A stretch of DNA of 64,000 nt, from sequence record NC_041869.1. One strand, written 5' to 3'. The notes beneath the pieces were generated by a model. It did not search any database and was not told where the DNA came from. It saw only the letters and a program-made list of their open reading frames with translations. How positions within the stretch are numbered: position 1 is the stretch's first letter; every line of letters begins with the position of its first letter. The position numbers and the translations under genes are program-made. This stretch comes from Escherichia phage APECc02. Below, piece by piece: positions 11,972 to 54,087 of the stretch.

Positions 11972-12161
11972 AATGAACAATCCGGTAGCAAAGAACTGTA
12001 ATAAATTCAACAAGTCTGCGATTCACACTGACAGGAAAAAGAGTTGGTTTCCTGACATTGACGAGGAGCTTGAGAGTTACTTTGAAGATTTAGTCACCAA
12101 TGCAGAGGAGGTTGCGATTAAAGAATACGCAGACAGGAGGGATAAGGCCGGAATCTGTTGA
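11972..12161 (+). CDS. hypothetical small protein
   Basis: About 63 aa from the ATG at 11972 (GAGGGG RBS); ORF track starts 20 nt earlier. Confidence 0.35.
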
Positions 12162-12186
12162 CAAAAATAATGTTACCTGATAAGAT
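12158..12186 (+). promoter_or_regulatory. sigma70-like promoter (TTGACA-N17-TAAGAT)
   Basis: Perfect -35 hexamer, 17-nt spacer; upstream of ORF 12238-12480. Confidence 0.5.
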
Positions 12187-12237
12187 CTGCAATATGATGT
12201 GATACAATTTTAACTTACGAGGTCTACAGGTAATGCT

Positions 12238-12480
12238 ATGTTTAAGGTTAAGCTCGTTTTTCGTTCCATGAATGAGGATTATTTAGAAGATGAAGGTGAA
12301 TTTCGTGCACTGGATGATGCAATAGATTTTGCCAACGACTTAGCTTGTATGAATACGGGTTATGGGCTATGCTGTTGGGATGGTGGTGTTCAGATCGGTG
12401 ATAGCAAGATCTTCTACTTCTACCCTGAGCCCGATAACAAACAAATTAAGTATGTTTTATTTATTTGTGCTTTACAATGA
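12238..12480 (+). CDS. hypothetical protein
   Basis: 80-aa acidic ORF downstream of a consensus promoter. Confidence 0.5.
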   Translation: MFKVKLVFRSMNEDYLEDEGEFRALDDAIDFANDLACMNTGYGLCCWDGGVQIGDSKIFYFYPEPDNKQIKYVLFICALQ

Positions 12481-12767
12481 GGTTGTTTTCGTGTATCATG
12501 ATGAATATCCAATTTAAAGATGAATTTGATGGCTTTATCTCCGGATGCTTTGAAACAGGGTTCGGAGAAGGCTGAGTTACCCTTAGAGGGCTTGATAGTG
12601 CACCACACTTAAAATGGTAGGGGCAGCCAGCACATGACGATGTGACCCCAGCCAACCTGTAATAAGGTCGAGCCAAAGCGCGGTAATGGGCTCTGGTAAC
12701 CCACTTGTTGGGTCTTGCTGGTCCAGGACGCTGGACAAGTCGCAGGGAATACCACCCTGCGGCGAAC

Positions 12768-12796
12768 TTGACAATCAGTATTTGCTATGATAAAAT
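12768..12796 (+). promoter_or_regulatory. sigma70-like promoter (TTGACA-N17-TAAAAT)
   Basis: Perfect -35 and near-consensus -10 about 30 nt upstream of the ATG at 12826. Confidence 0.55.
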
Positions 12797-12825
12797 CCAC
12801 CTATCACGTGATAATGGAGGAAACA

Positions 12826-13163
12826 TGGCGGATACAACTAAAAAGCGTCGCCGTAGAGGCAGACCTCTGAAAGAGGAGTCCAACGCCATTCAGCTAGAGA
12901 AGAACATCCTTGATATGAAGGAATCTTTTATAGCGATGGTTCCAGAAGCTCACAAAGTTTTAAGAGAGCTGATGTTGGACCCGAAAACCAAACAAAATAT
13001 TCGTCAAAGCATTGCAGAGTATGTTCTTGATAAGGCAGACCGAATGCAGGAAGAATATGATGAGATGTTTGGTGAAGAGGAAGAGGTGGTAGTAGAAGAG
13101 GCTGAAAAACCAGCACCTTTTATGCCATTTACCACAGAAATACAGCCTGTTGGCAATAGTTAA
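12826..13163 (+). CDS. hypothetical protein with basic N-terminus and acidic C-terminus
   Basis: Start moved to the ATG at 12826 (GGAGG RBS); KKRRRRGRP N-terminus, EEEEVVVEE tail. The track's 12705 start would run through the promoter. Confidence 0.5.
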
Positions 13164-13172
13164 AATATTTTC

Positions 13173-13201
13173 TTGACAAACTTTGCTTAACAGTGTAATA
13201 T
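13173..13201 (+). promoter_or_regulatory. sigma70 promoter (TTGACA-N17-TAATAT) for the tRNA cluster
   Basis: Consensus hexamers about 60 nt upstream of the first tRNA. Confidence 0.6.
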
Positions 13202-13259
13202 TGTAAACATGGTCTCCCACCTTTTCTGGCGGCTAAGGTGTAAAAGAAAGCCACCCAGT

Positions 13260-13334
13260 GCCCTGTTAGCTTAGTGGATAAAGCAGCGGCCTTCTAAGCC
13301 GTTGACACTGGTTCGAGTCCAGTACGGGGTGCCA
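13260..13334 (+). tRNA. tRNA-Arg (anticodon TCT)
   Basis: Hand-folded cloverleaf: acceptor gccctgt/acggggt (two G-U pairs), D stem gctt/aagc, anticodon loop cttctaa, T arm actgg-ttcgagt-ccagt, encoded CCA. Confidence 0.75.
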
Positions 13335-13338
13335 AATT

Positions 13339-13425
13339 GGGGAGTTATCCCGTAGAGGTAGCGGTGTAGACTGTAAATCTATTGTCATTGCGACTCGGGT
13401 GGTTCGACTCCACCACTCCCCACCA
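13339..13425 (+). tRNA. tRNA-Tyr (anticodon GTA), long variable arm
   Basis: Acceptor ggggagt/actcccc, anticodon loop ctgtaaa, T arm ggtgg-ttcgact-ccacc, encoded CCA; 87 nt type II. Confidence 0.75.
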
Positions 13426-13539
13426 AATTTACATTTTTAAATGCATAAATCATACAGATAATGGCATTGATATTTATCGTCGTTTATACTAGTCACTAAC
13501 TGCTCGAAAATCAGTGTCATTATCAGTATTGTTTATAAA

Positions 13540-13630
13540 TGAGGGTAGGGAGCAATGGTGCTCAAGCGGTCTTGAAAACCGTCCCGTTGAGGATGACTCG
13601 ATGATGGTTCGATTCCATTACCCTCAGCCA
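13540..13630 (+). tRNA. tRNA-Ser (anticodon TGA), long variable arm
   Basis: Acceptor tgagggt/accctca, anticodon stem-loop gcggt-cttgaaa-accgt, T loop ttcgatt, encoded CCA; 91 nt. Confidence 0.7.
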
Positions 13631-13728
13631 TATTGTTGACCTTGTAATTAAGCGAAAGCCGGAAGCAGAACCGGATTATCAAATGTTACAGTCGTCATCG
13701 CCGACTAGCAACATGGTCAACATACTGA

Positions 13729-13825
13729 GCTAGGTAAGCCCTTTGGCAAGGGCGAGGATTTTTAATCCTGAAAATAGACGAGGTAGTCGTTGAATACATA
13801 GGTGGTTCGATTCCATCACCTAGCA
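13729..13825 (+). tRNA. tRNA-like gene, identity ambiguous (anticodon possibly TTT, Lys)
   Basis: Perfect acceptor gctaggt/acctagc, D stem gccc/gggc, T arm ggtgg-ttcgatt-ccatc, but about 30 nt between anticodon arm and T arm, no position-26 spacer, no encoded CCA. Confidence 0.4.
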
Positions 13826-13832
13826 CCTTTTT

Positions 13833-13908
13833 GCTGATGTAGCACAATTGGTAGTGCAATTGATTTGTAATCAATAGGTTGCAGGTTCGAGTCCTGCTAT
13901 CAGCACCA
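13833..13908 (+). tRNA. tRNA-Thr (anticodon TGT)
   Basis: Acceptor gctgatg/tatcagc, D stem gcac/gtgc, anticodon arm attga-tttgtaa-tcaat, T arm gcagg-ttcgagt-cctgc, CCA; 76 nt. Confidence 0.8.
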
Positions 13909-13909
13909 T

Positions 13910-13984
13910 GGCCCTGTAGCTGGAAGGTTCAAGCAAGCGACTCATAATCGCCAGACGGTGGTTCAATTCCACCCAGGGCCACCA
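13910..13984 (+). tRNA. tRNA with CAT anticodon (Met, or Ile2 read via lysidine)
   Basis: Acceptor ggccctg/cagggcc, anticodon loop ctcataa, T arm ggtgg-ttcaatt-ccacc, CCA. The anticodon arm gcgactcataatcgc resembles bacterial tRNA-Ile2 as I recall it. Confidence 0.7.
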
Positions 13985-13995
13985 AATAATAAATA

Positions 13996-14072
13996 CTCCG
14001 CGTAGCTCAGCTTGGTAGAGCGCCTGATTTGGGATCAGGAGGTCGAGTGTTCGAATCACTCCGTGGAGACCA
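13996..14072 (+). tRNA. tRNA-Pro (anticodon TGG)
   Basis: Acceptor ctccgcg/cgtggag with C1-G72, D arm gctc-agcttggta-gagc, anticodon arm cctga-tttggga-tcagg, T arm gagtg-ttcgaat-cactc, CCA. Confidence 0.8.
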
Positions 14073-14118
14073 CTTTCAGTTATACTTTAAACATATACAA
14101 ACAAAAGGAACCTTTAAA

Positions 14119-14388
14119 ATGTATACACTTAAAATTGTAGAGCGTGTAAATCCAACCCATACTGTAGATTTTCGTGACGATTTCAATCCTCTGGCTGTAA
14201 ATCTTCGAGAGTCATATCATGAACTCAGCTGCGATGCAGTGGTGGTCTTTTTTGAAGACAACTCTGAAGGGGCAGTAGCTTGTGTTGTTGATAGTGAGCA
14301 GAAGTTTTATATTTACAGAGATGTAGATGCATACTTGATGAATGAAAATGCAGTTACTGTTAGAATCATCCACCGAGTGCCTCGATAA
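14119..14388 (+). CDS. hypothetical protein
   Basis: Start moved to the ATG at 14119 (AAGGAA RBS); the track start at 14029 lies inside tRNA-Pro. 89 aa. Confidence 0.45.
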   Translation: MYTLKIVERVNPTHTVDFRDDFNPLAVNLRESYHELSCDAVVVFFEDNSEGAVACVVDSEQKFYIYRDVDAYLMNENAVTVRIIHRVPR

Positions 14389-14440
14389 GTATTAGTCTCC
14401 TTTTAGTTAGTTTCGATCTATTTAGGTTACTCAATTTTAA

Positions 14441-14485
14441 CCCGCCCCGTTAGCTGTATAGCTGTATAGCTGCGGGGTTTTTTCG
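14441..14485 (+). terminator. putative rho-independent terminator
   Basis: GC stem cccgc/gcggg with a large loop holding a gctgtatagctgtatagctg tandem, then a 7-T run. Confidence 0.5.
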
Positions 14486-14501
14486 TTTCTGGAGCCTTAA
14501 A

Positions 14502-14900
14502 ATGATTTCAGTTTTAACATGGCTGAGTAGGTATAGAGGGATCATAAAAGGTTTAGTTTTTGCAGCTGCGCTAGGTACAGCTTATCTTGGGGCCGTATAT
14601 TGGTTTAACTCTAAGCTTAATGAAGCCTACCAAGAGGGTGTGTCAGCAACAGAGTTAAAGTGGGAACGGATCCTTGATCAGCAACAAAAGCAGGCCGACA
14701 AAATTAAAATGGGCCACGCAGAGGAGGTTAAAAACCTTGAAAAATCCCTTTCTGATCTGCAGGATAAATTAAATATGGCTGAGAAGGCAGGTAAAGAAAA
14801 GCAGATTATCTACCTCCAGTCACCTGAAGGCAAGAAGTCAACACTTCCTGATCAGCTTATAGATATTTATAATGAGAGTATCAATCAGGAGGATCAATGA
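14502..14900 (+). CDS. putative i-spanin (Rz-like)
   Basis: 132 aa; single N-terminal transmembrane segment (GLVFAAALGTAYLGAVYWF) then charged coiled-coil-like sequence; overlaps the next gene by 4 nt. Confidence 0.55.
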   Translation: MISVLTWLSRYRGIIKGLVFAAALGTAYLGAVYWFNSKLNEAYQEGVSATELKWERILDQQQKQADKIKMGHAEEVKNLEKSLSDLQDKLNMAEKAGKEKQIIYLQSPEGKKSTLPDQLIDIYNESINQEDQ

Positions 14901-15184
14901 GAGTTGCTACACTGTTTATTGCGTGCTTGTTATTATGTGGGTGTGCAACCAGCGTTGAGAGAGAATACAAGATTGACCCTCCGGATGTAGGAAGGTTGAT
15001 TGTTAAACCCCCGGAAGGTGCCATGAAACCACCTGCTAAAGCTATGCCTTTGAAGAAAGGTGCTCCAGATGCAGTAAATTCTGGCATTATGAGGGATAAT
15101 AATTTGTCTTGTAGCAATGATAGAGCTAAATTGATCATTTTGCAAGACTATATTAGAACACTGTTTCCAAAGGAGAGAGGTTAA
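14897..15184 (+). CDS. putative o-spanin (Rz1-like lipoprotein)
   Basis: 95 aa; signal peptide ending in a lipobox-like LLCGC, proline-rich mature part; stop overlaps the terminase start codon. Confidence 0.55.
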   Translation: MRVATLFIACLLLCGCATSVEREYKIDPPDVGRLIVKPPEGAMKPPAKAMPLKKGAPDAVNSGIMRDNNLSCSNDRAKLIILQDYIRTLFPKERG

Positions 15185-15618
15185 TGTCTAAGATTTCTAA
15201 GATTTACGGACCGTGTTCTGAAAAGCAGAAGATGATCCTCGAAAACGATGCAGATATTTTGGTAATCGGCGGTGCCGCAGGGTCTGGCAAGTCGTTCCTC
15301 TTGCAGTTGATGCCGCTTAAAATTATTGATGACCCACACAGCTCTGTGGTTATGTTCCGAAGAACAACCCCGCAGTTGGAAGGTGAGGGTGGACTATGGC
15401 CTAAAGCAGTAGCTATTTATAGTGATCTGCCTGAAAACATTAAGCCAAAGTTTAGAGAGAAGGATCATAAGTTCATTTTTCCACGGTTTGATCCGAGCAC
15501 TGGCAAGTGGGATAGAAGCAAAAAGGGAGCTGTTGTAAAATACTGCCACATGGAGTATGTACAAGATAAGCTTAACCATCAGGGGCTTGAGTACACCATG
15601 GTTTGCTTCGATGAGGGT
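15184..15618 (+). CDS. terminase large subunit, exon 1 (ATPase N-terminal part)
   Basis: Walker A VIGGAAGSGKSF; ORF stops immediately after the Walker B-like MVCFDEG, with the rest of the protein in another frame about 0.9 kb downstream. Confidence 0.75.
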
Positions 15619-16501
15619 TAATTTGTAGCTCTCGTAAAACCTCCCTAATTGCGGGGAAATCTTTATTATTGACACCACCAACCTGTTATGGTAACATAAT
15701 AGAGGCTTCGAAGAGAGATCGAAGGTATGGTAACAGTGTGTTAATTTAGATAATCCGCAGCGAAGCATCCGAGAGGATGAACGTTCAACGACTAGTCGAA
15801 AGACGTAGAATCAAGCGATTCGAAACGGGAGGGTGAATGTGTAATACTAAAAAATGTATGGATTGCCAAAGAGTTCTGCCTATTGATGATTTCTTTTTAT
15901 CATCTAAGAGCAAGGATGGATACTCAGGTACATGCAAGGAATGCTATATGTACTACAGGAAGGGTGGATCTCGTAAAAACAAAAATATGGTTAAGAGAGA
16001 TGACGCAGCATTGTTTATTCAAGACTTGCTGAAGAAAGGTGAACTTTTTGAATGCAAATCTTGTCATGAAAGTATGCTCGCTGATAGTTTTTACACAAAA
16101 CGTGACTATGGTAAAGTATATCTGGTTACGAACAGGTGTAAGATGTGTGAAAAGTTTTATCAGATTGAGAAGAAATTTCACATAACAAAAGATGAATACT
16201 ATCGTCTACTCTCAGATCAAGATCATAAGTGTGCCATTTGTAGAATATCTCTTAATGAGTATAGGACGCAAGGGTACAGAGATTTCTTTTGTGTTGATCA
16301 TGACCATAAAACTGGTGCTGTAAGAGGGTTGCTTTGTGATAAATGCAACAGAGCTTTAGGTTTCTTCCAAGAAGATGAGGAAACTATTCTTAGAGCGGCA
16401 GAGTATTTACACATTCATAAGATATAGTCTGGTCTGCATGGAGACATGCAGCTGCCTGAAAATGGCGGGGCAAGACTAGCGACCTTGCCCGAACATAAAC
16501 G
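15619..16501 (+). mobile_element. putative group I intron carrying an HNH homing endonuclease
   Basis: Intervening 883 nt between the two terminase parts; proposed 5' exon ends in T (15618) and intervening sequence ends in G (16501); free-standing HNH ORF inside; boundaries approximate. Confidence 0.55.
15837..16427 (+). CDS. HNH homing endonuclease (endonuclease VII-like motif)
   Basis: 196 aa; Cys-rich N-terminal zinc-finger-like region and CVDHDHKTGAVRGLLCDKCNRALG motif. Confidence 0.8.
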   Translation: MCNTKKCMDCQRVLPIDDFFLSSKSKDGYSGTCKECYMYYRKGGSRKNKNMVKRDDAALFIQDLLKKGELFECKSCHESMLADSFYTKRDYGKVYLVTNRCKMCEKFYQIEKKFHITKDEYYRLLSDQDHKCAICRISLNEYRTQGYRDFFCVDHDHKTGAVRGLLCDKCNRALGFFQEDEETILRAAEYLHIHKI

Positions 16502-17623
16502 ACACAGTTCGAATGGGAGCAGATAGACTATCTGATGTCTCGTCTGCGATCTCAGTCAAAGTATCCATCAAGAATGGTTATCAGCTGTAACCCTGATTCA
16601 GAACACATGCTTGCCAAACTGGTTAGGTGGTGGTTGGACGATGAAGGGTATCCAGATCCGGAGAAATGTGGTAAGAAAAGGTATTTTATCAGGCGTGACG
16701 GTGAATTTATCTGGGGAGACTCTAAAGAGGAGTTGATAGAGAAATACACCACGGTTAACGGACTGGGTGTGGAGATCAAGCCAAGACCGTTGTCATTCTC
16801 GTTTATAGGCGCAACAATATTCGATAATCCTGTCTGCTTGAGAGACAACCCAGAATACCTTGCTTTCCTTGAAGGTCTGCCTGAGCTTGAAAAAGCCCAG
16901 CTTCTTCATGGTAACTGGTTTGCAAAGCCTGAGGGTGCAAACTATTTTCAAAGATCTTTCCTTCGTGATGCCGATAGAGTACCTCTTGGATCAGTGTCTT
17001 GCAGGGCATGGGATAAAGCAGGAACCGAGAGAACTTCCGGTAATAAATTTCCTGACTTTACCGCCAGTGTCAAGGTAAGTAAAGATAGCGACGGCTTTTA
17101 TTACCTGTCCGGGGATTATTGTCCTGAGAACGTGGATGACGGGAGGTATTCCACAGGTCTGGAAGGCAAGTTCTGTAAAAAGGCTGGTGAACGAGATGTG
17201 ATCATCAGGAAACAGGCGCAGTTTGATGGTGATGATTGTATAATCGTATTCTCTGTGGACCCCGGTCAGGCAGGTAAGAGTGAGTTCTTAACCTCCTCCA
17301 GATCCTTGCTTGCCGAAGGGTTTAGGGTTGAAGAAGACCCAATGCCTTCCAACAAATCTAAACTGACAAGGTTCTCACCTTTTGCCAATCTTGCCCAACA
17401 AGGAATGGTGAGGATTGTAAAATCCAGTTTCCATCCTGATACTCTGGAAGCATTTCTGACTGAACTTGAAAAATTCAACGGGGAAAGATCAACATTTAAC
17501 AGAAAAGACGACTGGGCCGACTGTGTAGCTTCTGCGATTAATTTCCTGGAGAAAGAGGAGGTAGCACTTCCTTGTGTGATTCCATCAATCTCATCACCTT
17601 CTATGTTCAAGCGTTTTATCTAA
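16502..17623 (+). CDS. terminase large subunit, exon 2 (rest of ATPase plus nuclease domain)
   Basis: Frame open from 16499; RMVISCNP motif right after the junction, C-terminal DDWADCVASAINFL typical of terminase nuclease domains; the first ATG is only at 16535. Confidence 0.75.
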   Translation, partial: TQFEWEQIDYLMSRLRSQSKYPSRMVISCNPDSEHMLAKLVRWWLDDEGYPDPEKCGKKRYFIRRDGEFIWGDSKEELIEKYTTVNGLGVEIKPRPLSFSFIGATIFDNPVCLRDNPEYLAFLEGLPELEKAQLLHGNWFAKPEGANYFQRSFLRDADRVPLGSVSCRAWDKAGTERTSGNKFPDFTASVKVSKDSDGFYYLSGDYCPENVDDGRYSTGLEGKFCKKAGERDVIIRKQAQFDGDDCIIVFSVDPGQAGKSEFLTSSRSLLAEGFRVEEDPMPSNKSKLTRFSPFANLAQQGMVRIVKSSFHPDTLEAFLTELEKFNGERSTFNRKDDWADCVASAINFLEKEEVALPCVIPSISSPSMFKRFI

Positions 17624-17672
17624 GTGTTGCCAATCTTAATTAGATGTGGTAGAATAGAGTAATCGGAGATAC

Positions 17673-17700
17673 TAGCCCTCTAACACGAGGGCTATTTTGT
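17673..17700 (+). terminator. possible terminator or attenuator hairpin
   Basis: Stem tagccctc/gagggcta with a 6-nt loop, then TTTTGTT; sits between terminase and portal. Confidence 0.4.
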
Positions 17701-17725
17701 TATACTGTTTTGAGGGGTAAAGCTT

Positions 17726-19282
17726 GTGTCCAAAAAGAACCGCAGGAAACACAACGCCACAGCCAAAACTGTGAATAAATCTGGGAACGCAGGCGCACCA
17801 ACTCATAATGTTCGTATGAGTGAGATCGGTTCTGGCGCACTTTCCCAAATTATGGCAGAATCGCAATCTATGATGGTTGAGGAATTGCGTTGGCCTCAGC
17901 TGATTGCCACCGTGGAGACTATGAAATGTGATTCCACAGTTGCTACTGCCTTAGATACAAAATATGTTTTCATCACGAAAGCATTCAATGATTTTAAGAT
18001 CCTCTATAATGTTAAAAGTGAAGACTCTAAGAAAGCTGCCGAGCTTATAGAGTATTCTTTGCGTAATTTGGCAAACCAACAAACTCTTCGAGATATTGCA
18101 AGAAGCGCAGCTACCTTTAACGAGTATGGTTTTTCACTGTTTGAGAAAGTATACCGCAGAGAGAAAGAAGGTAAATATGCCGGGATGCTTCTTATTGATA
18201 AAATTGCATTCCGACCTCAGGCCAGTTTGTCCAGATCAGAGCCGTTTGTCTTTGACAAGAATAGTAGAACACTGACAGGTATTTATCAATCACCTAATGC
18301 ATTTCTAAACACTCAGAATGCACGCTGGGCTGGACCTCTTGCTGCAATGCCTTCAAAAGGCTTTAATGAGCCTGAAATTTTCATCCCTGCTAAAAAGCTT
18401 ATGCTCATGACCCTGTCAGGAACAGAATCTAACCCTGCAGGTGTGTCACCGATGATAGGTTGCTACAGATCTTTCCGTGAGAAAGTTCTGATTGAAAACC
18501 TTGAGGTTGTTGGCTGTTCCAAAGACCTTGGTGGTGTGCTTGAGCTGAAAATTCCTTCCAATATTTTGAACAAGGCCAGCATTGACCCGAATTCAATGGA
18601 AGGGAGAATGGTTGCAGACCTTATGCTTGACGCAGCAAACGCCCATAGTGGTGAGCAAAGTTTCTTTATACTTCCGTCTGATAGAGATAAGTCTGGTAAA
18701 GAGCTTTACTCCATGACCCTGAAGGGGGTTGACGGTATGGGTAAGCAGTATTCCACTAAAGATTTGATTGATGCCCGTAAGAAGGCGATTCTTGACCGTT
18801 TCGGTGCTGGCTTTATTAACCTCGGTAACGATAACGTTGGATCCTTCTCTCTGTCTGAGTCAAAACAGTCTATCCATGGTCATTTTGTTCAGCGTGATAT
18901 AGATATTATCACTGAGGCCTTCAATAAAGATCTTATTCCACAGCTTCTGGCATTGAATGGTATCATCCTTGAAGATGATGATATGCCTAAACTGAAACCT
19001 GGTCTGATTGAAGAAGTGGATATGGAGAGCTTCTCCAAGTTTGTCCAGAGGATCGGTGCTGTAGGTTACTTGCCAAAAACTCCTGCAGTAATTAATAAGA
19101 TTCTTGAAGTTGGCGGGTTTGATGAAAGATTTGACGAGGACATGGATCAGGAAGAGCTGATGAAGCTCTTGGGCCAGGACATTAGTAGGGCTGGTGATGG
19201 AATGGCTGCAGGATCCACTGGCAACGGCACTTCTAAGATGTCATCAACCAGAGATAATTCCATATCCAACATGGAAAATTAA
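17726..19282 (+). CDS. putative portal protein
   Basis: 518 aa, GTG start with GAGGGG RBS; size and position directly after the terminase, acidic C-terminus. Positional call. Confidence 0.6.
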   Translation: MSKKNRRKHNATAKTVNKSGNAGAPTHNVRMSEIGSGALSQIMAESQSMMVEELRWPQLIATVETMKCDSTVATALDTKYVFITKAFNDFKILYNVKSEDSKKAAELIEYSLRNLANQQTLRDIARSAATFNEYGFSLFEKVYRREKEGKYAGMLLIDKIAFRPQASLSRSEPFVFDKNSRTLTGIYQSPNAFLNTQNARWAGPLAAMPSKGFNEPEIFIPAKKLMLMTLSGTESNPAGVSPMIGCYRSFREKVLIENLEVVGCSKDLGGVLELKIPSNILNKASIDPNSMEGRMVADLMLDAANAHSGEQSFFILPSDRDKSGKELYSMTLKGVDGMGKQYSTKDLIDARKKAILDRFGAGFINLGNDNVGSFSLSESKQSIHGHFVQRDIDIITEAFNKDLIPQLLALNGIILEDDDMPKLKPGLIEEVDMESFSKFVQRIGAVGYLPKTPAVINKILEVGGFDERFDEDMDQEELMKLLGQDISRAGDGMAAGSTGNGTSKMSSTRDNSISNMEN

Positions 19283-19349
19283 AAATTATCAACACAGGGG
19301 GTTGCAAAACCTCCTTTGGCGTGATAAAATAATCCACATGGGGAATAAG

Positions 19350-19769
19350 ATGCCACAGGAAGAAATGATTTCCTACGAAATCATCTACGAACCTGACACT
19401 AAAGATGCTCACGGTGAGTGGATGAGTAAAGACACCATCAAAAAGGCTAAAGATAACTGGGACGCAGCATACGCCGCAGGCCTAGTTTCTGAAAACCTTT
19501 TTCACTTGACCTCTACAGATGCTTTCACTATTGAAAAGACGTGGATTCAAGAAGAGTTTGATGTTGTAGTAATTGGCACTGAGCAGGTCATCAAGGCTGG
19601 CTCTTGGGTTGCTAAAGTTAAATACAATAATCCTGAATTATGGGAAGCTAAGAAGGCTGGCATTGTTGGTGGCCTAAGCATTCAGGCAACAGGTAATGTT
19701 GATGAAGAAACTGGTGAAATTACCAACGTAAACTTCGGGATCAGTGTTGTAGAAGAGGGCAATGAATAA
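19350..19769 (+). CDS. hypothetical head assembly protein (possible prohead protease)
   Basis: About 139 aa from the ATG at 19350 (GGGGA RBS); lies between portal and scaffold; no catalytic motif recognised. Confidence 0.35.
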   Translation: MPQEEMISYEIIYEPDTKDAHGEWMSKDTIKKAKDNWDAAYAAGLVSENLFHLTSTDAFTIEKTWIQEEFDVVVIGTEQVIKAGSWVAKVKYNNPELWEAKKAGIVGGLSIQATGNVDEETGEITNVNFGISVVEEGNE

Positions 19770-20746: not shown

Positions 20747-20765
20747 GACATTAACGGGGAAATAA

Positions 20766-21155: not shown

Positions 21156-21203
21156 GCCCTAAATTGTTCGGGAAAATATTTAAGTTTTACTTTGGAGAAA
21201 TAA

Positions 21204-22211: not shown

Positions 22212-22236
22212 TCACTAAGGTGATTCATCCCATATG

Positions 22237-22266
22237 GGGAGGGGGTTCTCCCCTCCCCTTTTTATT
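22237..22266 (+). terminator. rho-independent terminator
   Basis: ggggaggggg-ttct-cccctcccc stem-loop followed by a T run. Confidence 0.8.
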
Positions 22267-22290
22267 TATTAGGGTTTACCAGGAGTGTCC

Positions 22291-23137: not shown

Positions 23138-23147
23138 TTTTGTTAAG

Positions 23148-23180
23148 GCCCCTTCCAAATCAGGAATGGGGCTTTATTTT
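23148..23180 (+). terminator. putative terminator
   Basis: gcccc/ggggc stem followed by TTTATTTT. Confidence 0.5.
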
Positions 23181-23196
23181 TACGAGGTATTTTCAA

Positions 23197-23817: not shown

Positions 23818-23823
23818 AAATTG

Positions 23824-23852
23824 TTGCTTTTGATGTATCTTTGTGGTAAAAT
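23824..23852 (+). promoter_or_regulatory. putative promoter (TTGCTT-N17-TAAAAT, TGG upstream of -10)
   Basis: Shares the tggtaaaata -10 context seen at several other intergenic sites. Confidence 0.45.
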
Positions 23853-23870
23853 ACATTAGTGAGGGATATA

Positions 23871-24329: not shown

Positions 24330-24344
24330 AAATAAGGGGGTTGA

Positions 24345-27254: not shown

Positions 27255-27272
27255 GGGCACACTTTAGCATAA

Positions 27273-27300
27273 GCCTCACCTTCGGGTGGGGCTTTTTGCT
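27273..27300 (+). terminator. rho-independent terminator
   Basis: gcctcacc-ttcg-ggtggggc hairpin plus TTTTT. Confidence 0.8.
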
Positions 27301-27344: not shown

Positions 27345-27373
27345 TTGACAATGCACCATAATCATGGTAAAAT
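27345..27373 (+). promoter_or_regulatory. sigma70-like promoter (TTGACA-N17-TAAAAT)
   Basis: Perfect -35, 17-nt spacer, TGG immediately upstream of the -10. Confidence 0.6.
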
Positions 27374-28150: not shown

Positions 28151-28155
28151 TCTAA

Positions 28156-28190
28156 GGGCCGGATTCCTTTTCTGGGATCTGGCCCTTTTT
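28156..28190 (+). terminator. putative terminator
   Basis: gggcc...ggccc hairpin followed by TTTTT. Confidence 0.6.
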
Positions 28191-30541: not shown

Positions 30542-30553
30542 TAAACTGTGCAA

Positions 30554-30578
30554 GGGGGCTCCGGCCCCCTTTATTTTA
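30554..30578 (+). terminator. rho-independent terminator
   Basis: gggggc-tccg-gccccc hairpin plus T run. Confidence 0.8.
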
Positions 30579-30584: not shown

Positions 30585-30613
30585 TTGTAAAAACGGCTAT
30601 TTTATGATACAAT
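30585..30613 (+). promoter_or_regulatory. putative promoter (TTGTAA-N17-TACAAT)
   Basis: Hexamers with 17-nt spacing right after the terminator. Confidence 0.45.
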
Positions 30614-42418: not shown

Positions 42419-42425
42419 AGTATTG

Positions 42426-42450
42426 CCCTCGCTTCGGCGGGGGTTTTTTG
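42426..42450 (+). terminator. rho-independent terminator
   Basis: ccctcgc-ttcg-gcggggg hairpin plus TTTTTT. Confidence 0.8.
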
Positions 42451-42456
42451 TTTGTA

Positions 42457-42485
42457 TTGCGTATTAACTTAAAATCTGGTAAAAT
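42457..42485 (+). promoter_or_regulatory. putative promoter (TTGCGT-N17-TAAAAT, TGG upstream)
   Basis: Same tggtaaaata -10 context as the other late-region promoters. Confidence 0.45.
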
Positions 42486-42516
42486 AACTATCATAATTGT
42501 TTAACCTGGAGGCATA

Positions 42517-47684: not shown

Positions 47685-47692
47685 CCTTTAAA

Positions 47693-47720
47693 GCCCCGCT
47701 TCGGCGGGGTTTATTTTTAT
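47693..47720 (+). terminator. rho-independent terminator
   Basis: gccccgc-ttcg-gcggggt hairpin plus T-rich run. Confidence 0.8.
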
Positions 47721-47727
47721 GCTCAGA

Positions 47728-47756
47728 TTGACTATTGTTACAAAATTTGGTAAAAT
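47728..47756 (+). promoter_or_regulatory. sigma70-like promoter (TTGACT-N17-TAAAAT)
   Basis: Near-consensus hexamers with TGG upstream of the -10. Confidence 0.55.
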
Positions 47757-47789
47757 ACCTTGTAGAGATTTTCATACCGGAGGAGTGAC

Positions 47790-49280
47790 GTGGCTAAGTA
47801 TGGATTGACAGAGGCTGGTTTCGTTATACCAACCCTAAATGACCTAATCGTTGAAACTAAGCAAAGCCTGATCCGTGCTTTTGGCGAAAACTTCAACGTA
47901 CAGAGTAACTCCGTTGCAGATAAGCTGACCACTATCTTCAACGAGCGAGAGTATCAACTTATTCTTATGGCAGCATCTGTATACGCATCACAGACGCTGT
48001 ATGGGGCAGAAGGTATTTATCTGGATGAGCTTCTTGGAAGACAGGGTATTTACCGAAGAGGCCGTTCTAAATCATCAGGTACCTGCCAGTTGACGATCAA
48101 CACAACTGTGCCGTACAATATGATTTATGATTCCAAAACTTATACGCTGGATAGTGGCAACTTTGTTCTTAGCAATGATGTGCAAGTGGCAGGGAATCTT
48201 ATTGCTCACAGAATAAATGCTCCAGACCTGAGGATTGGTAAATACAACTTTCAAATTACCAACCAGACAGATGGAAGTATCAAAACAAAAAGTTTGGTTT
48301 TAACAGATAAGGCTCTGGACTCTTCTGATCTGCCAAGCTTTTACGGAGAGATTAAGCAATTCATTGTCGATAATACAACCCTGTTGAACGACGATTTGAT
48401 TCAGATCGATATGTTGACAGGAACGTTGTGGATAGGGTACAATTCGAATCTTGATCAAGTTGGACTTAATAGTAGGGTAGATTTCAGAGTATCCCCGATT
48501 GTAGGGGAAAGAACTATCACCCTGGATGTTATCGCTAACGAGGCTGGTGAGCTGTCAAGAGAGGCAGAAACCGTGACAACAATGTCACCTACTCCCAGTG
48601 GATTTATCAAGCTTACCAACAGAGAAAGATTCAATGAGGGCAGGGATGTTGAGAAAGACTCAGAGTATCGCTTAAGAGCTTCCAGCACAAAACAGTTAAC
48701 ATCTAAGGCTACCCGTCCTGCAATCCTTAGCGCTGTAAGCGAGGTGAAAGGTGTTGAGAAAGTGAGAGTGTTCTCTAACAATACCGATAAAACTGATGCT
48801 AAAGGTATACCTCCTTACAAGTTCCAAGTGGTTGTGTTTGGTGGTGCAACGGAGGACATTTGCCAAGCACTTTACCAAACTATAGCCTGTACGAACAGGA
48901 CTTATGGTAATATTTTCTACGATGTCACTACATCTGACGGTCAAACTGAAAGAATTTATTACTCCAAGGCAAATACCTACCGCTTGGATGTAAGAATTAC
49001 CTACTCCGGTGCTGCGCTTTCCACAACCGAAAAAGATGCCATTGTAGAGGCTCTTTTGCAGGTTGTTAACGGACTGGATGTTGCAGATACGTTATACAAT
49101 ATCCAATTGGTCGGTGCTGCATCCGCTGCTGTGTCAATAGGCAGATTTAATAGACTGGTAATTCAAGTTAAATCCGTAGGAGCTTCTGATGAAGCTTACA
49201 CTACAAACGATATTGTTGCGAACATGACCGAGGTGTTTGACCTCGACGAAAGTAATATAACTTTCCAACAAACTATTTAA
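47790..49280 (+). CDS. hypothetical baseplate wedge protein (possibly J-like)
   Basis: 496 aa, GTG start with GGAGG RBS; assignment from size and position upstream of the fibre genes only. Confidence 0.4.
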   Translation: MAKYGLTEAGFVIPTLNDLIVETKQSLIRAFGENFNVQSNSVADKLTTIFNEREYQLILMAASVYASQTLYGAEGIYLDELLGRQGIYRRGRSKSSGTCQLTINTTVPYNMIYDSKTYTLDSGNFVLSNDVQVAGNLIAHRINAPDLRIGKYNFQITNQTDGSIKTKSLVLTDKALDSSDLPSFYGEIKQFIVDNTTLLNDDLIQIDMLTGTLWIGYNSNLDQVGLNSRVDFRVSPIVGERTITLDVIANEAGELSREAETVTTMSPTPSGFIKLTNRERFNEGRDVEKDSEYRLRASSTKQLTSKATRPAILSAVSEVKGVEKVRVFSNNTDKTDAKGIPPYKFQVVVFGGATEDICQALYQTIACTNRTYGNIFYDVTTSDGQTERIYYSKANTYRLDVRITYSGAALSTTEKDAIVEALLQVVNGLDVADTLYNIQLVGAASAAVSIGRFNRLVIQVKSVGASDEAYTTNDIVANMTEVFDLDESNITFQQTI

Positions 49281-49291
49281 GGCGGCGAGAT

Positions 49292-49978
49292 ATGGCAGAG
49301 ATTAAGTCGGATGTTAACCACATCCACACTCTGCCAGATTTTGTTCAGGGGGGTCTTGACTACCTGCCTGGAGATTTTCTGGCTGAGAAGGTTAATTTAG
49401 TCACATTCTTAACCGTATACCTTAAAAGGTTGGAGGATGTTGATAAGATGCTGGTAGGTTTGGCTGAAGGAAGATTGCTTAACAATGCCAGCGGAAGATA
49501 CCTTGACGAAGTTGGTAATCAACTTGGTATTCTTAGGAATGGACTTTCAGATGCTGATTTTCGTGCCACACTAATTATTCAGCAGGCCGCAGCATCAAGG
49601 GGCGGGACTCGCGAAGATGTCATCTCCACCTTGCGACAATTGTTCGGAAGAGACAATTTCGATACGTGGAAAGGAGACAACTTCAGGTTTGACATAAATA
49701 TTAGAAAAACTTGCTTTGACATATTGCAGTCTATAGATCAGATCTTAGATATGCTACCATTGCCTTGTCATTTGCGTCTTACAGAATCGCAAGGGCAAGC
49801 TTTTGGTTTTGAAGGGGACTCTACAGCTCTTGGCTTCGGATCAGTGTGGGAAGAAAACCAATTCGGAGTTGGTGGGCTGGCTACTTTGCTATATGTTCCT
49901 GACGTAAGACCTGATTGGGACACCACAACCATTTATTGTGAAAGTATTACAGTAAACGCAACTAGACAGGAGGGTTAA
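49292..49978 (+). CDS. hypothetical baseplate protein
   Basis: 228-aa ORF; stop overlaps the next start. Confidence 0.4.
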   Translation: MAEIKSDVNHIHTLPDFVQGGLDYLPGDFLAEKVNLVTFLTVYLKRLEDVDKMLVGLAEGRLLNNASGRYLDEVGNQLGILRNGLSDADFRATLIIQQAAASRGGTREDVISTLRQLFGRDNFDTWKGDNFRFDINIRKTCFDILQSIDQILDMLPLPCHLRLTESQGQAFGFEGDSTALGFGSVWEENQFGVGGLATLLYVPDVRPDWDTTTIYCESITVNATRQEG

Positions 49979-52050
49979 TGGCAACAGCTGTTTTTAAACC
50001 TTACCGTGATTACTCTACAATGGCTGCACAGTTTCACTACCGAACAGTTCAGGATACTGCCGTTCCTGGTAGGGATTATAATCATGTTGAGGGCGATGTA
50101 ACTATCCCAATTGGGGCAACCAGTATTGAGATCCCCGTGGAAATTGTTGACAAATTACCCAACAGGTTACCAAGAAGCTTCTTTATGGAGTTTTCATCAA
50201 AATCTCAAGGGGTGATGATTGGGACACAAAGGGCGAAATGTACAATAGTTTCAGATGAGAATCTTGACAGGATATCCTGGGATACTGTTGAGGAGAGAAT
50301 GTTTCACCCAAGATATTGGGTTACAACCACTCAGCAGACTGAAAGTACCTGTATTGTTGCAGATGACAACTGTTGTATTAACCGTTTAGTGTCAAGAACA
50401 TATGGAGGTATGGCTGGGTGCATTTGGGAAACAGTTGACAAGTATGACCATTTCGGTATTGGGTTTGATGATCACTATGAGATGAGAAACACCAAGCTTT
50501 GGTTCAGAATGTCAATAACCAATGCCAGCAACTTCTCCACTCCTGAAAAGATGATTATGACTGTAGACCTTGTTGATGGCACAATCATCTATGTTCCTTT
50601 AGCTCAATATGCTGTCAGCATCTCAGAGGATAAGAATGTTGCAGAGATTCATATTGATTTCGAGGACTGCGTCGGGATGGATCAGAACAACAACATGATG
50701 GGTGTTGATCCTCGGCAGGTGAGAAGGATTTTAATACCGCTTATGCCTAAAGACTGGGTAAGTAATAGCACAGACCCGAGAACGGAAAATGTAGAGTGTG
50801 AGTTGCGCCTAGATCTGCTTCAGCCAGACACGGGCTGGAAAATGATGCAACTTAACAATATTCAGGTTAAAGAGCACGACGTCGGGATCTGCACCGCATA
50901 TGACGATATGTGGAACGTATCTCCTTTAAGGGTGTTGAACAATATCAAGCGTCTGGGCTATACCGGAACCATAAACCACTATGTTGGTATGAGTCATTAT
51001 TATGACTACACATGGTCAGGAACCCAATGGTCTATAAACAGAACAGGGGCGCTAAACGCTGCAGCTTATAAATGGCATGATGATTTTATGTACAATGCCA
51101 AACGACACAACTTCGACGTTATGCAGTCTGTAAGTTTTGAGCTTTACAGCGATGCCTGTCCGTTGGAATGGACCCAAAGAGACTGGAACGATAACTACGC
51201 TAAAACAGGGTATACACCTTGTAGCTACCTCCTGTCTCCAACCATTGAAGAGGGTATGAATTTCCTTACGGCAGTATTTAAGAATTTTGCATCAGCCGCT
51301 ATGAGAAACAACCTGCCAGTGATTATGCAGGTTGGTGAACCGTGGTGGTGGTTCAATACCGATACTCGTAGACCTTGTATTTATGATTACCCTACAAAAC
51401 AGGCGTTTTATGATGAGACAGGTGAGTATGCATTAGATATTGGGACTATTGACGATCCTAAAACTGGCGGTGTTTACGACAAGTATGTAGCATTTTGTCG
51501 TGGTAAGCTTGGCGCTCGTATTGCGGCTATTTCAAAGGCAATAAAGGCACACGCTGCATCAGCTCAGATGACAGCTTTACTGTTTTTCCCAACTATTATG
51601 GAAACCGAGCTTACGCAAAAGCTGAACCTTGCCGACCAATATAAAAAAGAAGCAGGTGCTCTTGATTTCTTCTGCACCGAGTGCTACGATTGGGTGATGC
51701 AGGGAGGTATTGAAAAGGCAAAAGAGTCTGTAAACATACCTATCGTTAAGTTAGGTTGGCAACCGTCTGAAATACAATACCTTGCAGGGTTCGTTCCTAG
51801 TAAAGAGCTTGCTCCGGTATATGGCTACGACCCAACCAGGAATTACCAAGAATTTTTATGGAGATGTATTTGCGGAAACATGGCAACTATAGAGTATAGA
51901 TATCCTGAGGTAAAACAGTATGTGTGGGCATACCCGCAAGTAATGTCTGACAGCATCACTGTTACCGCTAGAGATTCTACCGTGCTTCATATGGGGCAGG
52001 TTGCTCTGAAAGGGTATGTAGAAGATGTTGTCCCGCCAGACTTCTCATAA
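49978..52050 (+). CDS. large tail protein, possible glycoside-hydrolase-like domain
   Basis: 690 aa; Trp-rich segment MQVGEPWWWFNTD reminiscent of TIM-barrel glycosidase active-site regions. Speculative. Confidence 0.4.
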   Translation: MATAVFKPYRDYSTMAAQFHYRTVQDTAVPGRDYNHVEGDVTIPIGATSIEIPVEIVDKLPNRLPRSFFMEFSSKSQGVMIGTQRAKCTIVSDENLDRISWDTVEERMFHPRYWVTTTQQTESTCIVADDNCCINRLVSRTYGGMAGCIWETVDKYDHFGIGFDDHYEMRNTKLWFRMSITNASNFSTPEKMIMTVDLVDGTIIYVPLAQYAVSISEDKNVAEIHIDFEDCVGMDQNNNMMGVDPRQVRRILIPLMPKDWVSNSTDPRTENVECELRLDLLQPDTGWKMMQLNNIQVKEHDVGICTAYDDMWNVSPLRVLNNIKRLGYTGTINHYVGMSHYYDYTWSGTQWSINRTGALNAAAYKWHDDFMYNAKRHNFDVMQSVSFELYSDACPLEWTQRDWNDNYAKTGYTPCSYLLSPTIEEGMNFLTAVFKNFASAAMRNNLPVIMQVGEPWWWFNTDTRRPCIYDYPTKQAFYDETGEYALDIGTIDDPKTGGVYDKYVAFCRGKLGARIAAISKAIKAHAASAQMTALLFFPTIMETELTQKLNLADQYKKEAGALDFFCTECYDWVMQGGIEKAKESVNIPIVKLGWQPSEIQYLAGFVPSKELAPVYGYDPTRNYQEFLWRCICGNMATIEYRYPEVKQYVWAYPQVMSDSITVTARDSTVLHMGQVALKGYVEDVVPPDFS

Positions 52051-52062
52051 TCAGGAGATAAA

Positions 52063-53103
52063 ATGTCAAAACCTAGTTTTCCATTAGAGATTTGGGCAGA
52101 GGAGGATCAGGTTCTGCCTAACACCCACAGACAGAACAGGCTACGCCCGATTGATGATTTGTGGAGAAAAGGTTGGGATCTTGGTCAAAAGCCCTCATGT
52201 GAAGAACTTAACTATATTTTCAATATGCTCGGGACTTGGGCAAAATACATTGCTGACGAGCAGATCCCCGCTCAAGAAGGCCGTTATCTGGTACGTGATA
52301 ATAACTTGAGCGATCTTTTGAACATCCCTGTTGCCCGTAGAAACCTTGGGATTATCACTAAGGAAGAGGCAGACGCCAGGTATGTAAAAGTTACAGGTGA
52401 TACAATGACAGGCCCCTTGGGGTTGCAACGTATCAACTTTAAAGCTGCCGAGACAGATAAGGCTTGGATAGAGACAACTATTGGCCCAGATAAGACAACT
52501 CTCGACTTTGGGTTAAGTGATAATACCGGGTCGTTTGATGATGGTGGTACATCTACAGTGGATGCGTTCCGTTGGAGATTCCAGCCAACTCAGCCGGATA
52601 TTAATCCAGAGTTCACTTTGATGTACCTTAACGCGATCACGGCTAACCGTGCGCTGTTGAAAGTGGTAGGCAATGTTGAAGTTGTCGATAACATGAGGTG
52701 CAATAACCTTACTATCAGCAATACAGCGACATTCACCAACTGTAATGTGGCTAGTCAGTTGACGGCTGGGTCAGTGTATGTTAATGGTGGTGCAAGTTGT
52801 GACAGTATGGTTGTAAGAAGCCAGCACTGTGTTGTCGGTAACAGAAATGTGGTTCGCTCTGTGAACGGAGTGACGGCTAACGGTAACGGTGATGTAACGA
52901 TCACTATCCCGCAGACAGGTGTGCAAGACATCAGAATCGGTGCAAGACTTGTGGACGGAGTTTCTGAATCTCCAATCCGCAACGGCTACGTTGTCACAGG
53001 CTGGCATTTCGGTGACAAAAAAGAGATGCGTGGTTCAACCTACTGGGCAGGACCTTTACAAAAACTTGTAAATGGTCAATGGATCACTGTTAATTATGCA
53101 TAG
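52063..53103 (+). CDS. tail fibre protein (paralogue 1)
   Basis: 346 aa; collar-like motif ARRNLGI...EADARYV...GDTMTGPL; C-terminus YWAGPLQKLVNGQWITVNYA; followed by a Tfa-type chaperone gene. Confidence 0.7.
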   Translation: MSKPSFPLEIWAEEDQVLPNTHRQNRLRPIDDLWRKGWDLGQKPSCEELNYIFNMLGTWAKYIADEQIPAQEGRYLVRDNNLSDLLNIPVARRNLGIITKEEADARYVKVTGDTMTGPLGLQRINFKAAETDKAWIETTIGPDKTTLDFGLSDNTGSFDDGGTSTVDAFRWRFQPTQPDINPEFTLMYLNAITANRALLKVVGNVEVVDNMRCNNLTISNTATFTNCNVASQLTAGSVYVNGGASCDSMVVRSQHCVVGNRNVVRSVNGVTANGNGDVTITIPQTGVQDIRIGARLVDGVSESPIRNGYVVTGWHFGDKKEMRGSTYWAGPLQKLVNGQWITVNYA

Positions 53104-53117
53104 ATCGGAGGACTAGC

Positions 53118-53702
53118 ATGAAAATACTTCAAGAGTTTAAACTTTACCAACCGGGATCTGGCGAATACCGCACCAACAAGGAAACCAAGGAGCTGACCCC
53201 TCAAGAGGTTGAGGATTACACAGCATACACTGGGTATTTTTTACGTAATGATGATGGCGATTGGTATGTGCAGTCACGAACATTGCGACAAGAAAATCCG
53301 GGTTGTATCTTCCTACTTGTTGACGAGAAGGGAATTCTTAAGACATCTACAGAAGAACCTGATGCCTTATGGCCTGCTCCAGGTCTTCGTGTGGTTATCG
53401 CCAAAAAAGAAGAGGTACCAGAAAACATTATGCTTCACCACGACGCTTTGCGTTTAGTTGGTGATGAATTTGTCACAGATAATGAATTCTTTGTTCAACA
53501 GGCAGAGGGTGTCATAGAGACAGAACTTGCTTGGGCTACTGCTAGAATTGGTGCCTATCAAGACGTGATTGACCTTGAATATGATCTTACTGATGACCAG
53601 AAACGTAACATCAGAGATTTGAAAATGTACAGGGTAAAACTTCTTGAAATAGATACATCTAAAGCCCCTGACATTTTCTTCCCGGAGCGACCTACCCTCT
53701 AA
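53118..53702 (+). CDS. tail fibre assembly chaperone (Tfa-like)
   Basis: 194 aa; C-terminal LAWATARIGAYQDVIDLEYDLTDDQKRNIRDLKMYRVKLLEIDTSKAPDIFFPERP matches the conserved Tfa C-terminal domain pattern. Confidence 0.7.
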   Translation: MKILQEFKLYQPGSGEYRTNKETKELTPQEVEDYTAYTGYFLRNDDGDWYVQSRTLRQENPGCIFLLVDEKGILKTSTEEPDALWPAPGLRVVIAKKEEVPENIMLHHDALRLVGDEFVTDNEFFVQQAEGVIETELAWATARIGAYQDVIDLEYDLTDDQKRNIRDLKMYRVKLLEIDTSKAPDIFFPERPTL

Positions 53703-53713
53703 GAGGAGGTGTT

Positions 53714-54028
53714 GTGGAGTTGGATTTGGCGGCATTGTACGGTATCTGCATGGGTACCGTTGTCCCGATCTGTGTATGGGCTTTCAACCAGTGGCACACC
53801 AAATGGAAAGGCATTTCCAAGAGGTTGGATGAACTGGAGAAAGACCTCATCTTAGTGAAAAACAGTATGGTTACAAAAGATAAACTTGATTCCGTTATCG
53901 AGACCCGGTTAAGCAAGCTAGAGGCCGATATTAACGACCTTAAGCAGGATGTCAGGACAGATGTCTCCGGTATCCGAGCTGATGTACAAAAGATTTTGCA
54001 CATGCTCGTAGAGCATAGTAAAAGGTAA
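53714..54028 (+). CDS. small membrane protein with coiled-coil
   Basis: 104 aa; N-terminal hydrophobic segment (LAALYGICMGTVVPICVWAF) then heptad-like charged sequence. Confidence 0.45.
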   Translation: MELDLAALYGICMGTVVPICVWAFNQWHTKWKGISKRLDELEKDLILVKNSMVTKDKLDSVIETRLSKLEADINDLKQDVRTDVSGIRADVQKILHMLVEHSKR

Positions 54029-54038
54029 ACAAAGGTCA

Positions 54039-54068
54039 GAACGGAAAGGACTCCGTTCTTGCATTTTG
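54039..54068 (+). terminator. putative terminator
   Basis: gaacgga/tccgttc hairpin followed by a T-rich stretch. Confidence 0.55.
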
Positions 54069-54087
54069 TTCTCTAAAGTGTTAAAAT
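54059..54087 (+). promoter_or_regulatory. putative promoter (TTGCAT-N17-TAAAAT)
   Basis: Overlaps the terminator tail; upstream of the second fibre paralogue. Confidence 0.45.

Follow-up and report, generated by a model that had tools for sequence, protein, structure and literature searches.

What the late genes of Escherichia phage APECc02 (sequence record NC_041869.1) are transcribed from, and by which form of RNA polymerase, is the question raised by a short sequence, tggTAAAATa, that recurs between these genes. The DNA analyzed, hereafter the window, is a stretch of 64,000 nucleotides (nt). Over 12 kb, it shares 98% identity with many Escherichia phages assigned to Vequintavirus (e.g., EmilHeitz, phita32, HdK5), and on sequence grounds the window is placed in this genus, representing an rV5-like E. 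coli myovirus. As deduced from guanine-cytosine (GC) skew and the map of open reading frames (ORFs), a block of co-oriented genes occupies the + strand from ~9.3 to 60 kb. Using gene names transferred from the annotated relatives HdK5 and RudolfGeigy, this block starts with small ORFs, seven transfer RNA (tRNA) genes, spanins, a split terminase and the portal, continues with the prohead protease, scaffold, decoration protein and major capsid protein, and further comprises neck genes, sheath, tube, tape measure, baseplate and tail fibres. Within it, the recurrent sites probably represent promoters of the sigma70 extended −10 type, at which the host RNA polymerase holoenzyme would start transcription. 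The motif itself is already known, since it was published in silico in 2013, and the sites in the window represent a rediscovery. Recurrence across genera, absence from a Felix O1-type phage, near-confinement to the late/tRNA block, a separate early class and negative Pfam results are added here as a modest extension.

Applying the strict pattern TTGNNN-N17-TA(A/T)AAT, eight matches were obtained in the window vs 1.87 expected, a number that none of 100 shuffles reached. Seven of these are located on the + strand (12768, 19302, 23824, 27345, 42457, 47728 and 54059), and all seven read TGnTAAAAT. With up to one mismatch allowed, TGGTAAAATA was matched 23 times (6.0 expected) and TTG-N17-TGNTAAAAT 13 times (2.53 expected), the latter count likewise being reached in 0 of 100 shuffles. 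The relaxed TTG-N17-TGNTAAAAT pattern places 11 of its 13 matches on the + strand and thereby adds 12158, 15669, 17627 and 30585 to the seven strict sites. Each of the 11 lies between genes or in an intron and points in the direction of the next gene. Moreover, seven of the eight late-strand copies of TGNTAAAAT fall into intergenic DNA, which accounts for ~7.7% of the sequence (binomial p = 1e-7). A generic sigma70 −35/−10 scan of the window showed no enrichment (28 sites vs 26.2 expected), flagged an upstream TG at 47728 only and skipped 42457 and 54059, where the −35 matches just three of six positions. The signal resides in the TG-extended −10 element.

The initial annotation had reported a repeated promoter motif, and pattern counts against 100 shuffles confirm its presence far beyond chance, both ahead of the tRNA cluster and within the structural module. 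Its figure of at least nine sites is too high for the strict pattern, which yields seven on the + strand, and is exceeded once a −10 mismatch is allowed (11 sites); its first site, 12158, is not a strict match, having TAAGAT as −10 hexamer. Likewise, tggTAAAATa had been attributed to five sites; exact copies of TGGTAAAATA number four (23844, 27365, 42477 and 47748), and the fifth similar copy, TGTTAAAATA at 54079, requires one mismatch. Perfect TTGACA elements were correctly noted as occurring several times, namely at 12158, 12768, 15669 and 27345.

The architecture of the sites is of the kind recognised by sigma70 holoenzyme. The 'tgg' ahead of TAAAAT is the TGn by which a sigma70 −10 element is extended: TG at −15/−14, one base before the hexamer, is present in all 11 window sites, as is a −10 hexamer of the form TAnnnT with A at −11 and T at −7. 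Seven hexamers are TAAAAT, and the remaining ones are TAAGAT, TAACAT, TAGAAT and TACAAT. When sites were picked by the −10 sequence TGNTAAAAT alone, the triplet exactly 14 nt before TG was TTG in 7/7 cases, compared with a late-strand background of 0.022 for TTG. The spacer between TTG and the −10 element is thus 17 base pairs (bp). A −35 TTG, a 17-bp spacer, TGn and a −10 hexamer together provide the full geometry for sigma70 regions 4, 3.0 and 2. The −10 elements end 18–52 nt before start codons equipped with a Shine-Dalgarno sequence, the exceptions being 15669 (~140 nt) and 17627 (intervening terminator). With the E. coli sigma70 extended −10 class, the sites share the TG one base before TAnnnT, the 17-bp spacer to the −35 and the location 18–52 nt before start codons. 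A −35 element is often missing from classical extended −10 promoters; unlike these, the window sites keep TTG and show a uniform TAAAAT without a spread around TATAAT.

At such a site, sigma region 2 would read TAAAAT, a 5/6 match to TATAAT that retains the critical A at −11 and T at −7, region 3.0 would read TG at −15/−14, and region 4 would contact the minimal −35 TTG at optimal 17-bp spacing. From this geometry, we infer that RNA polymerase could initiate at the sites without requiring a phage factor. Seven to nine of them would then act as start or re-start points within the 9.3–60 kb block. The extended −10 promoter class has been described previously (PMC3950348).

The distribution of the sites along the block, all on the + strand, indicates which genes they would serve. 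In the pre-tRNA block, 12158–12186 (TTGACA-N14-TGA-TAAGAT, a hybrid of perfect −35 and extended −10) precedes the small ORF 12238–12480, and 12768–12796 (TTGACA-N14-TGA-TAAAAT) precedes ORF 12825–13163 and the tRNA cluster at 13260–14072. An early-type promoter without TG, TTGACA-N17-TAATAT at 13176–13204 (rV5 'PtRNA'), was additionally observed ~55 nt before tRNA-Arg; the tRNA cluster would be served by this element besides the extended −10 sites 12158 and 12768 farther upstream. In the head module, 19302–19330 (TTGCAA-N14-TGA-TAAAAT) lies 19 nt before the start of the prohead protease gene (19350) and would head a protease-scaffold-decoration-major capsid operon, and 23824–23852 (TTGCTT-N14-TGG-TAAAAT(A)) lies 18 nt before a neck/tail-completion gene (23871) and would head an operon running through sheath and tube.

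Five further sites follow closely behind intrinsic terminators. Site 27345–27373 (TTGACA-N14-TGG-TAAAAT(A)) is located 45 nt past the terminator 27267–27299 and ahead of the tail chaperone gene 27417, whereas only 13 nt separate 30585–30613 (TTGTAA-N14-TGA-TACAAT), which precedes the tail-tube initiator gene (30647), from the terminator 30552–30571. The site at 42457–42485 (TTGCGT-N14-TGG-TAAAAT(A)), before the tail fibre gene 42517, begins 12 nt past the terminator 42425–42444, and that at 47728–47756 (TTGACT-N14-TGG-TAAAAT(A)), before the baseplate wedge gene 47790, 15 nt past the terminator 47691–47712. Finally, the −35 of 54059–54087 (TTGCAT-N14-TGT-TAAAAT(A)) overlaps the tail of a weak terminator hairpin (54035–54062) ahead of the short tail fibre gene 54118. 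These five sites would resume transcription for the chaperones, baseplate hub, tail fibres, baseplate wedge and short fibre.

In total, 12 intergenic intrinsic terminators were found on the late strand. Those at 27267, 30552, 42425, 47691 and 54035 have a late-class promoter within 50 nt behind them, and 59945–59966 (+ strand) closes the late block. The other six (14445–14477, 17673–17694, 22236–22258, 23146–23174, 28154–28187 and 57217–57238) leave no room for a promoter and sit behind the tRNA block, the terminase, the major capsid gene, the 22292 gene, the chaperones and 57209; the one after the major capsid gene (22236–22258, + strand) is strong. Since no promoter stands behind these six, polymerase has to run past leaky terminators to transcribe much of the module. 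The six would probably act as leaky attenuators setting protein ratios. The description of the sites as lying often right after terminators therefore applies to five of the 11 and fails for the rest, and the proposal of transcription in discrete units is overstated, agreeing with the five terminator-promoter pairs and not with the six promoter-less terminators. On this predicted map, the module is a mixture of re-initiation cassettes and leaky attenuators and not a series of fully discrete units.

The same putative promoter elements are present in rV5, the genome of which is ~98% identical to the window. For this phage, 33 sigma70-like promoters were listed, 11 of them with extended −10 regions, and the MEME motif TggTAaAAtA was reported in eight copies upstream of late genes 27–66 and called a putative late promoter (Kropinski et al. 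2013, Virol J 10:76). Sequences P075, P074, P056, P051, P040, P036 and P030 of the rV5 Table S4 match window sites 12158, 12768, 23824, 27345, 42457, 47728 and 54059, P030, P036, P040, P051 and P056 being identical or near-identical to their counterparts; P074, P075, P051 and P036 belong to the sigma70-like promoters of rV5, and the late motif is given in part C of that table. P064 is the counterpart of 17627, the two differing once in the −10 (TACAAT in rV5, TAGAAT in the window). The rV5 alignments of P048 and P055 disagree with the present ones, and the promoter of the tube initiator is placed here at 30585–30613. P055 was not accepted, since it falls within a coding region, its −10 (TAGAAG) is poor and no convincing site was seen. 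In the rV5 paper, the motif was not equated with the TGn extended −10 element, the fixed −35 TTG was not pointed out, and no comparison with other genera or with the early promoter class was included.

Comparison across genera addresses whether the sites are maintained. Vequintavirus was compared with Seunavirus (PVP-SE1), Mydovirus (Mydo), the Certrevirus-like POP18 (53% GC) and LTH01, the sheath proteins of the latter four being 51–59% identical to that of the window. In the window, RudolfGeigy, PVP-SE1 and POP18, TGNTAAAAT occurs five to eight times per late strand and zero to one time on the other strand. Mydo and LTH01, assessed by DNA pattern search alone, contain six and seven matches to the full pattern with at most one mismatch vs 1.5 and 1.7 expected, and almost all of these matches lie on the late strand. 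Four positions are common to all five genera, namely those before the prohead protease (19302), the 23871-type neck gene (23824), the tail-tube initiator (30585) and the baseplate wedge (47728), and the proteins flanking the conserved sites are 42–60% identical between genera. At the protease site, the −35 is always TTGCAAAA across the five genera, and at the tail-tube initiator the other genera have TGnTAAAAT where the window (30585) has TACAAT. The −35 TTG is kept at five of eight comparable sites in PVP-SE1 and POP18; at two conserved positions, it is TTT in some genera and merges with the T-tract of the upstream terminator.

Counterparts of 27345, 42457 and 54059 were sought in the other genera, and none were found outside Vequintavirus. 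In the tube-chaperone gap, to which the Vequintavirus-specific site 27345 belongs, other genera possess a conserved terminator only: in PVP-SE1 and POP18, a conserved hairpin GCCACATGGACGTGGC is followed by a T-tract, and the window instead has another terminator plus promoter 27345. A further motif copy was observed in PVP-SE1, POP18 and LTH01, in which TTGAGA/TTGATA-N14-TG(T/C)TAAAAT overlaps the start codon of the orthologue of 55173, a small gene ahead of the tail fibre gene (ATG-YTA-AAA, i.e., Met-Leu-Lys); the window lacks this copy (ATGAAACTA). It could be an internal promoter of the fibre gene or a coding coincidence, probably reflects coding constraint, and was left out of the counts.

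In the Felix O1-type late block of Felixounavirus LF110P2, neither strand bias nor intergenic enrichment of the motif was found. Its absence from this control marks the class as specific to the subfamily. Recurrent intergenic words of LF110P2 include CTTTTAA (6/17 gaps) and TATAAGG/CTATAAG (three to four gaps), and these may represent a different regulatory motif of the Felix O1 group.

These comparisons also bear on the idea that the sites are functionless products of chance, arising from AT-rich intergenic DNA and the T-tracts of terminators. Such an origin would agree with the generic scan, which remains at chance (28 vs 26.2), and with the overlap of some −35 TTG/TTT triplets with terminator T-tails. 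It is hardly credible, however, given that the observed counts were reached in none of the 100 shuffles, that 11 of 13 matches lie on the coding strand, that orthologous positions are kept in five genera, one of them represented by a genome of 53% GC, and that the Felix O1-type control lacks the motif. Because of the shuffle statistics and the conservation, a chance origin is regarded as refuted.

In order to place the sites among all promoters of such a phage, genome-wide counts were obtained from A135, a complete, unannotated 143-kb relative that is 94–99% identical to the window. It contains 24 copies of TGNTAAAAT, eight of which have TTG at 17 bp. Of these eight full-architecture copies, seven are the window's sites and all belong to the late/tRNA block, and a called ORF of the early/middle region contains the remaining one (72048, TTGTAA-N14-TGCTAAAAT). 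Sites of the form TTGACA-N16-18-TANNNT number 50 genome-wide, and the intergenic co-directional ones are mainly early/middle. Calling was also performed without reference to the late motif, using TTGNNN-N16-18-TANNNT in refined intergenic DNA of A135. Among these unbiased sites, TG is present in 7/9 late vs 3/29 early/middle sites (Fisher p = 3e-4) and TAAAAT in 4/9 vs 0/29 (p = 0.002). In the early promoters listed for rV5, TTGACA is invariant and the third −10 position is T in 11 of 16; in the late class across genera, this position is A in 27 of 29 sites and never T. Based on these counts, the late set is a predicted class distinct from the early TTGACA/TAT-type promoters.

The existence of two clearly different promoter classes within one genome opens a second explanation, in which TGnTAAAATa defines a dedicated late class that host RNA polymerase reads only after a phage factor has altered its preference. 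Such a factor could be a co-activator, a novel sigma-appropriator or a protein that binds sigma region 4 or the beta-flap like T4 AsiA or P23-45 gp39, and it would silence early and host promoters of the TTGACA type to the advantage of the extended −10 class. This explanation would account for TAAAAT, usually followed by A, being near-invariant over five genera without drift to TATAAT, and for the decay of the −35 to TTT at some orthologous sites, where it is not strictly needed. Precedent is provided by Thermus phage P23-45, the middle and late promoters of which are of the extended −10 type, lack a −35 and depend on a specificity switch by gp39 (Tagami et al. 2014, PMC3950348); there, the extended −10 promoters evade the sigma4-displacing factor (PMC3950348), and T4 AsiA is a related case. 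Moreover, new small sigma4-displacing phage proteins are still emerging (bioRxiv 10.64898/2025.12.17.695035), and the rV5 authors themselves chose the label 'putative late promoter' and mentioned an Srd-like gp11 (Kropinski et al. 2013). Like P23-45, the present phage type has no RNA polymerase of its own, structural genes behind extended −10 elements, and early/host promoters of the −10/−35 type. P23-45, however, has a known sigma4/beta-flap binder and −35-less promoters, whereas the window sites keep the −35 TTG (7/7). No sigma4/beta-flap-binding phage protein was recognised by Pfam among the A135 ORFs, such proteins being small, fast-evolving and usually without a family.

The fixed TTG at exactly 17 bp in 7/7 window sites points to continued engagement of sigma region 4, ordinary sigma70 contacts account for every element, and no sigma, AsiA, MotA, gp55 or gp33 domain was recognised by Pfam among the A135 ORFs. 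A dedicated late class is thus considered rather unlikely. The same holds for its wider form, a Vequintavirinae-wide class TTG-N14-TGnTAAAATa in at least five genera, with the early-to-late switch brought about by a small phage protein acting on the sigma70 holoenzyme, which is tentatively put forward as a doubtful proposal. If true, it would represent a new late-transcription control system in a large, therapeutically used phage group devoid of T4-like gp55/33/45 and AsiA/MotA.

Bacteriophage T4 itself offers a less suitable model. An A/T-rich box in the −10 region before structural genes of a large myovirus recalls the T4 late promoters, and the rV5 authors set TggTAaAAtA beside the T4 late consensus TATAAATA, while also stating that gp33/45/55 homologues are missing in rV5 (Kropinski et al. 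2013). The upstream TG and −35 TTG of the window sites are foreign to T4 late promoters. Searching the window for TATAAATA gave four copies vs 2.27 expected, which does not amount to enrichment, all on the − strand and antisense in the late block (one just outside), and this candidate was rejected. The T4 MotA box (a/t)(a/t)(a/t)TGCTT(t/c)A at −30 was discarded as well, TGCTT being present only in 23824 (TTGCTTTTG) and not in the other ten sites. For the T4 sigma factor gp55, co-activator gp33 and clamp gp45, no Pfam family was detected in ~154 ORFs of A135, although very divergent proteins could escape.

A third explanation, considered very unlikely, regards the motif as a signal at the RNA level (an mRNA processing or stability site) or as an operator for a protein such as the weak helix-turn-helix (HTH) candidate encoded at 10373–10720. 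Its strict strand specificity and its location in the 5' leaders of transcripts that read through would agree with this view, long read-through RNAs are probable because many terminators of the late strand are without a promoter behind them, and a gene for a weak HTH_36/DUF6945 protein lies just upstream of the block. However, two sequence blocks with a fixed 17-bp gap represent sigma70 geometry and would be unexpected for an RNA motif or a dimeric operator. The motif is without dyad symmetry, its position directly behind terminators suits re-initiation, and the HTH match falls below the Pfam curated cut-offs. The ORF in question (116 aa) heads the co-oriented block and has sub-threshold matches to DUF6945 (E = 2.3e-5) and HTH_36 (E = 8.2e-5); it was the sole DNA-binding candidate noticed near the late block.

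Recognition by the host sigma70 holoenzyme remains the preferred interpretation, and several observations weigh against it. A promoter that combines a −35 TTG with TG and a near-consensus −10 should be active as soon as infection begins, and unmodified sigma70 leaves the late timing unexplained. The uniformity of TAAAAT, never TATAAT, exceeds what generic sigma70 selection would produce. Between the window and the other genera, identity is 0.95 in the core and 0.42 in the spacer, and the core value is partly by construction, since the core pattern had itself been used to find the sites of the other genera. A Pfam search covering ~154 non-structural A135 ORFs detected no domain of the sigma, gp55, AsiA or MotA type; very divergent or novel RNA polymerase-binding proteins escape Pfam. 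A literature search for start-site or RNA sequencing (RNA-seq) data on Vequintavirinae returned none; the motif is not described in the Septuagintavirus, CB7 and Felix O1 papers, and the RNA-seq of a daunorubicin preprint concerns a T5-like phage. Furthermore, at the questionable site 17627–17655 (TTGCCA-N14-TGG-TAGAAT), between terminase and portal, a terminator hairpin (17673–17694) with T-tract follows ~20 nt downstream of the −10 (17650–17655), ahead of the portal start at 17726. The same promoter-then-terminator order precedes the portal in rV5 (P064, t064ABC). Function of this site as a promoter is doubtful, and the arrangement at 17627–17704 could give rise to a ~40-nt RNA, attenuate transcription or have no function. 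Altogether, the attribution to host sigma70 made in the initial annotation is supported in part; it agrees with the architecture and with the Pfam result for phage sigma, gp55, AsiA and MotA domains, but leaves the timing without explanation.

The second atypical site, 15669–15697 (TTGACA-N14-TGG-TAACAT), is located within a group I intron at 15609–16451 on the + strand (Rfam RF00028, full-length model, E = 1.6e-9, 46.3 bits, just missing the gathering score of 50). This intron splits the terminase large subunit gene (15184–17623), and the orthologous TerL is annotated as a three-piece join in RudolfGeigy (BASEL). The intron ORF 15837–16424 carries an Endonuclease VII domain (Pfam E = 1.3e-21) and has a promoter-like site of its own, TTGACA-N14-TGGTAACAT, so that 15669 would serve an intron-borne homing endonuclease.

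Two side observations concern the genome and its relatives. A 99-nt tRNA at 13729–13827 was reported by ARAGORN without definite identity and with a four-base anticodon (atcc), scores 35.5 bits only as tRNA in Rfam and is annotated as tRNA-OTHER in HdK5; it may be intron-containing or otherwise unusual. Moreover, MG065690.1 ('Campylobacter phage A135') and 18 'Campylobacter' records among the window's matches are 94–99% identical to E. coli Vequintaviruses. The Campylobacter host label on such records is probably wrong, e.g., via co-isolated coliphages.

Phages of the rV5 type are common in phage-therapy and biocontrol collections. The discovery value of the present analysis is small, as the motif itself has been available since 2013, and its contribution lies in a sharpened question: promoters that look strong for unmodified sigma70 occur in a phage with no known sigma or anti-sigma factor, and what makes them late is to be asked. 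For genome engineering, cassettes composed of a terminator and TTG-N14-TGnTAAAAT would mark natural insertion points and provide portable late-expression signals. For the biology of the subfamily, the outcome is a testable promoter map of the structural module, which separates putative subfamily-wide from genus-specific promoters and indicates the terminators at which re-initiation may take place.

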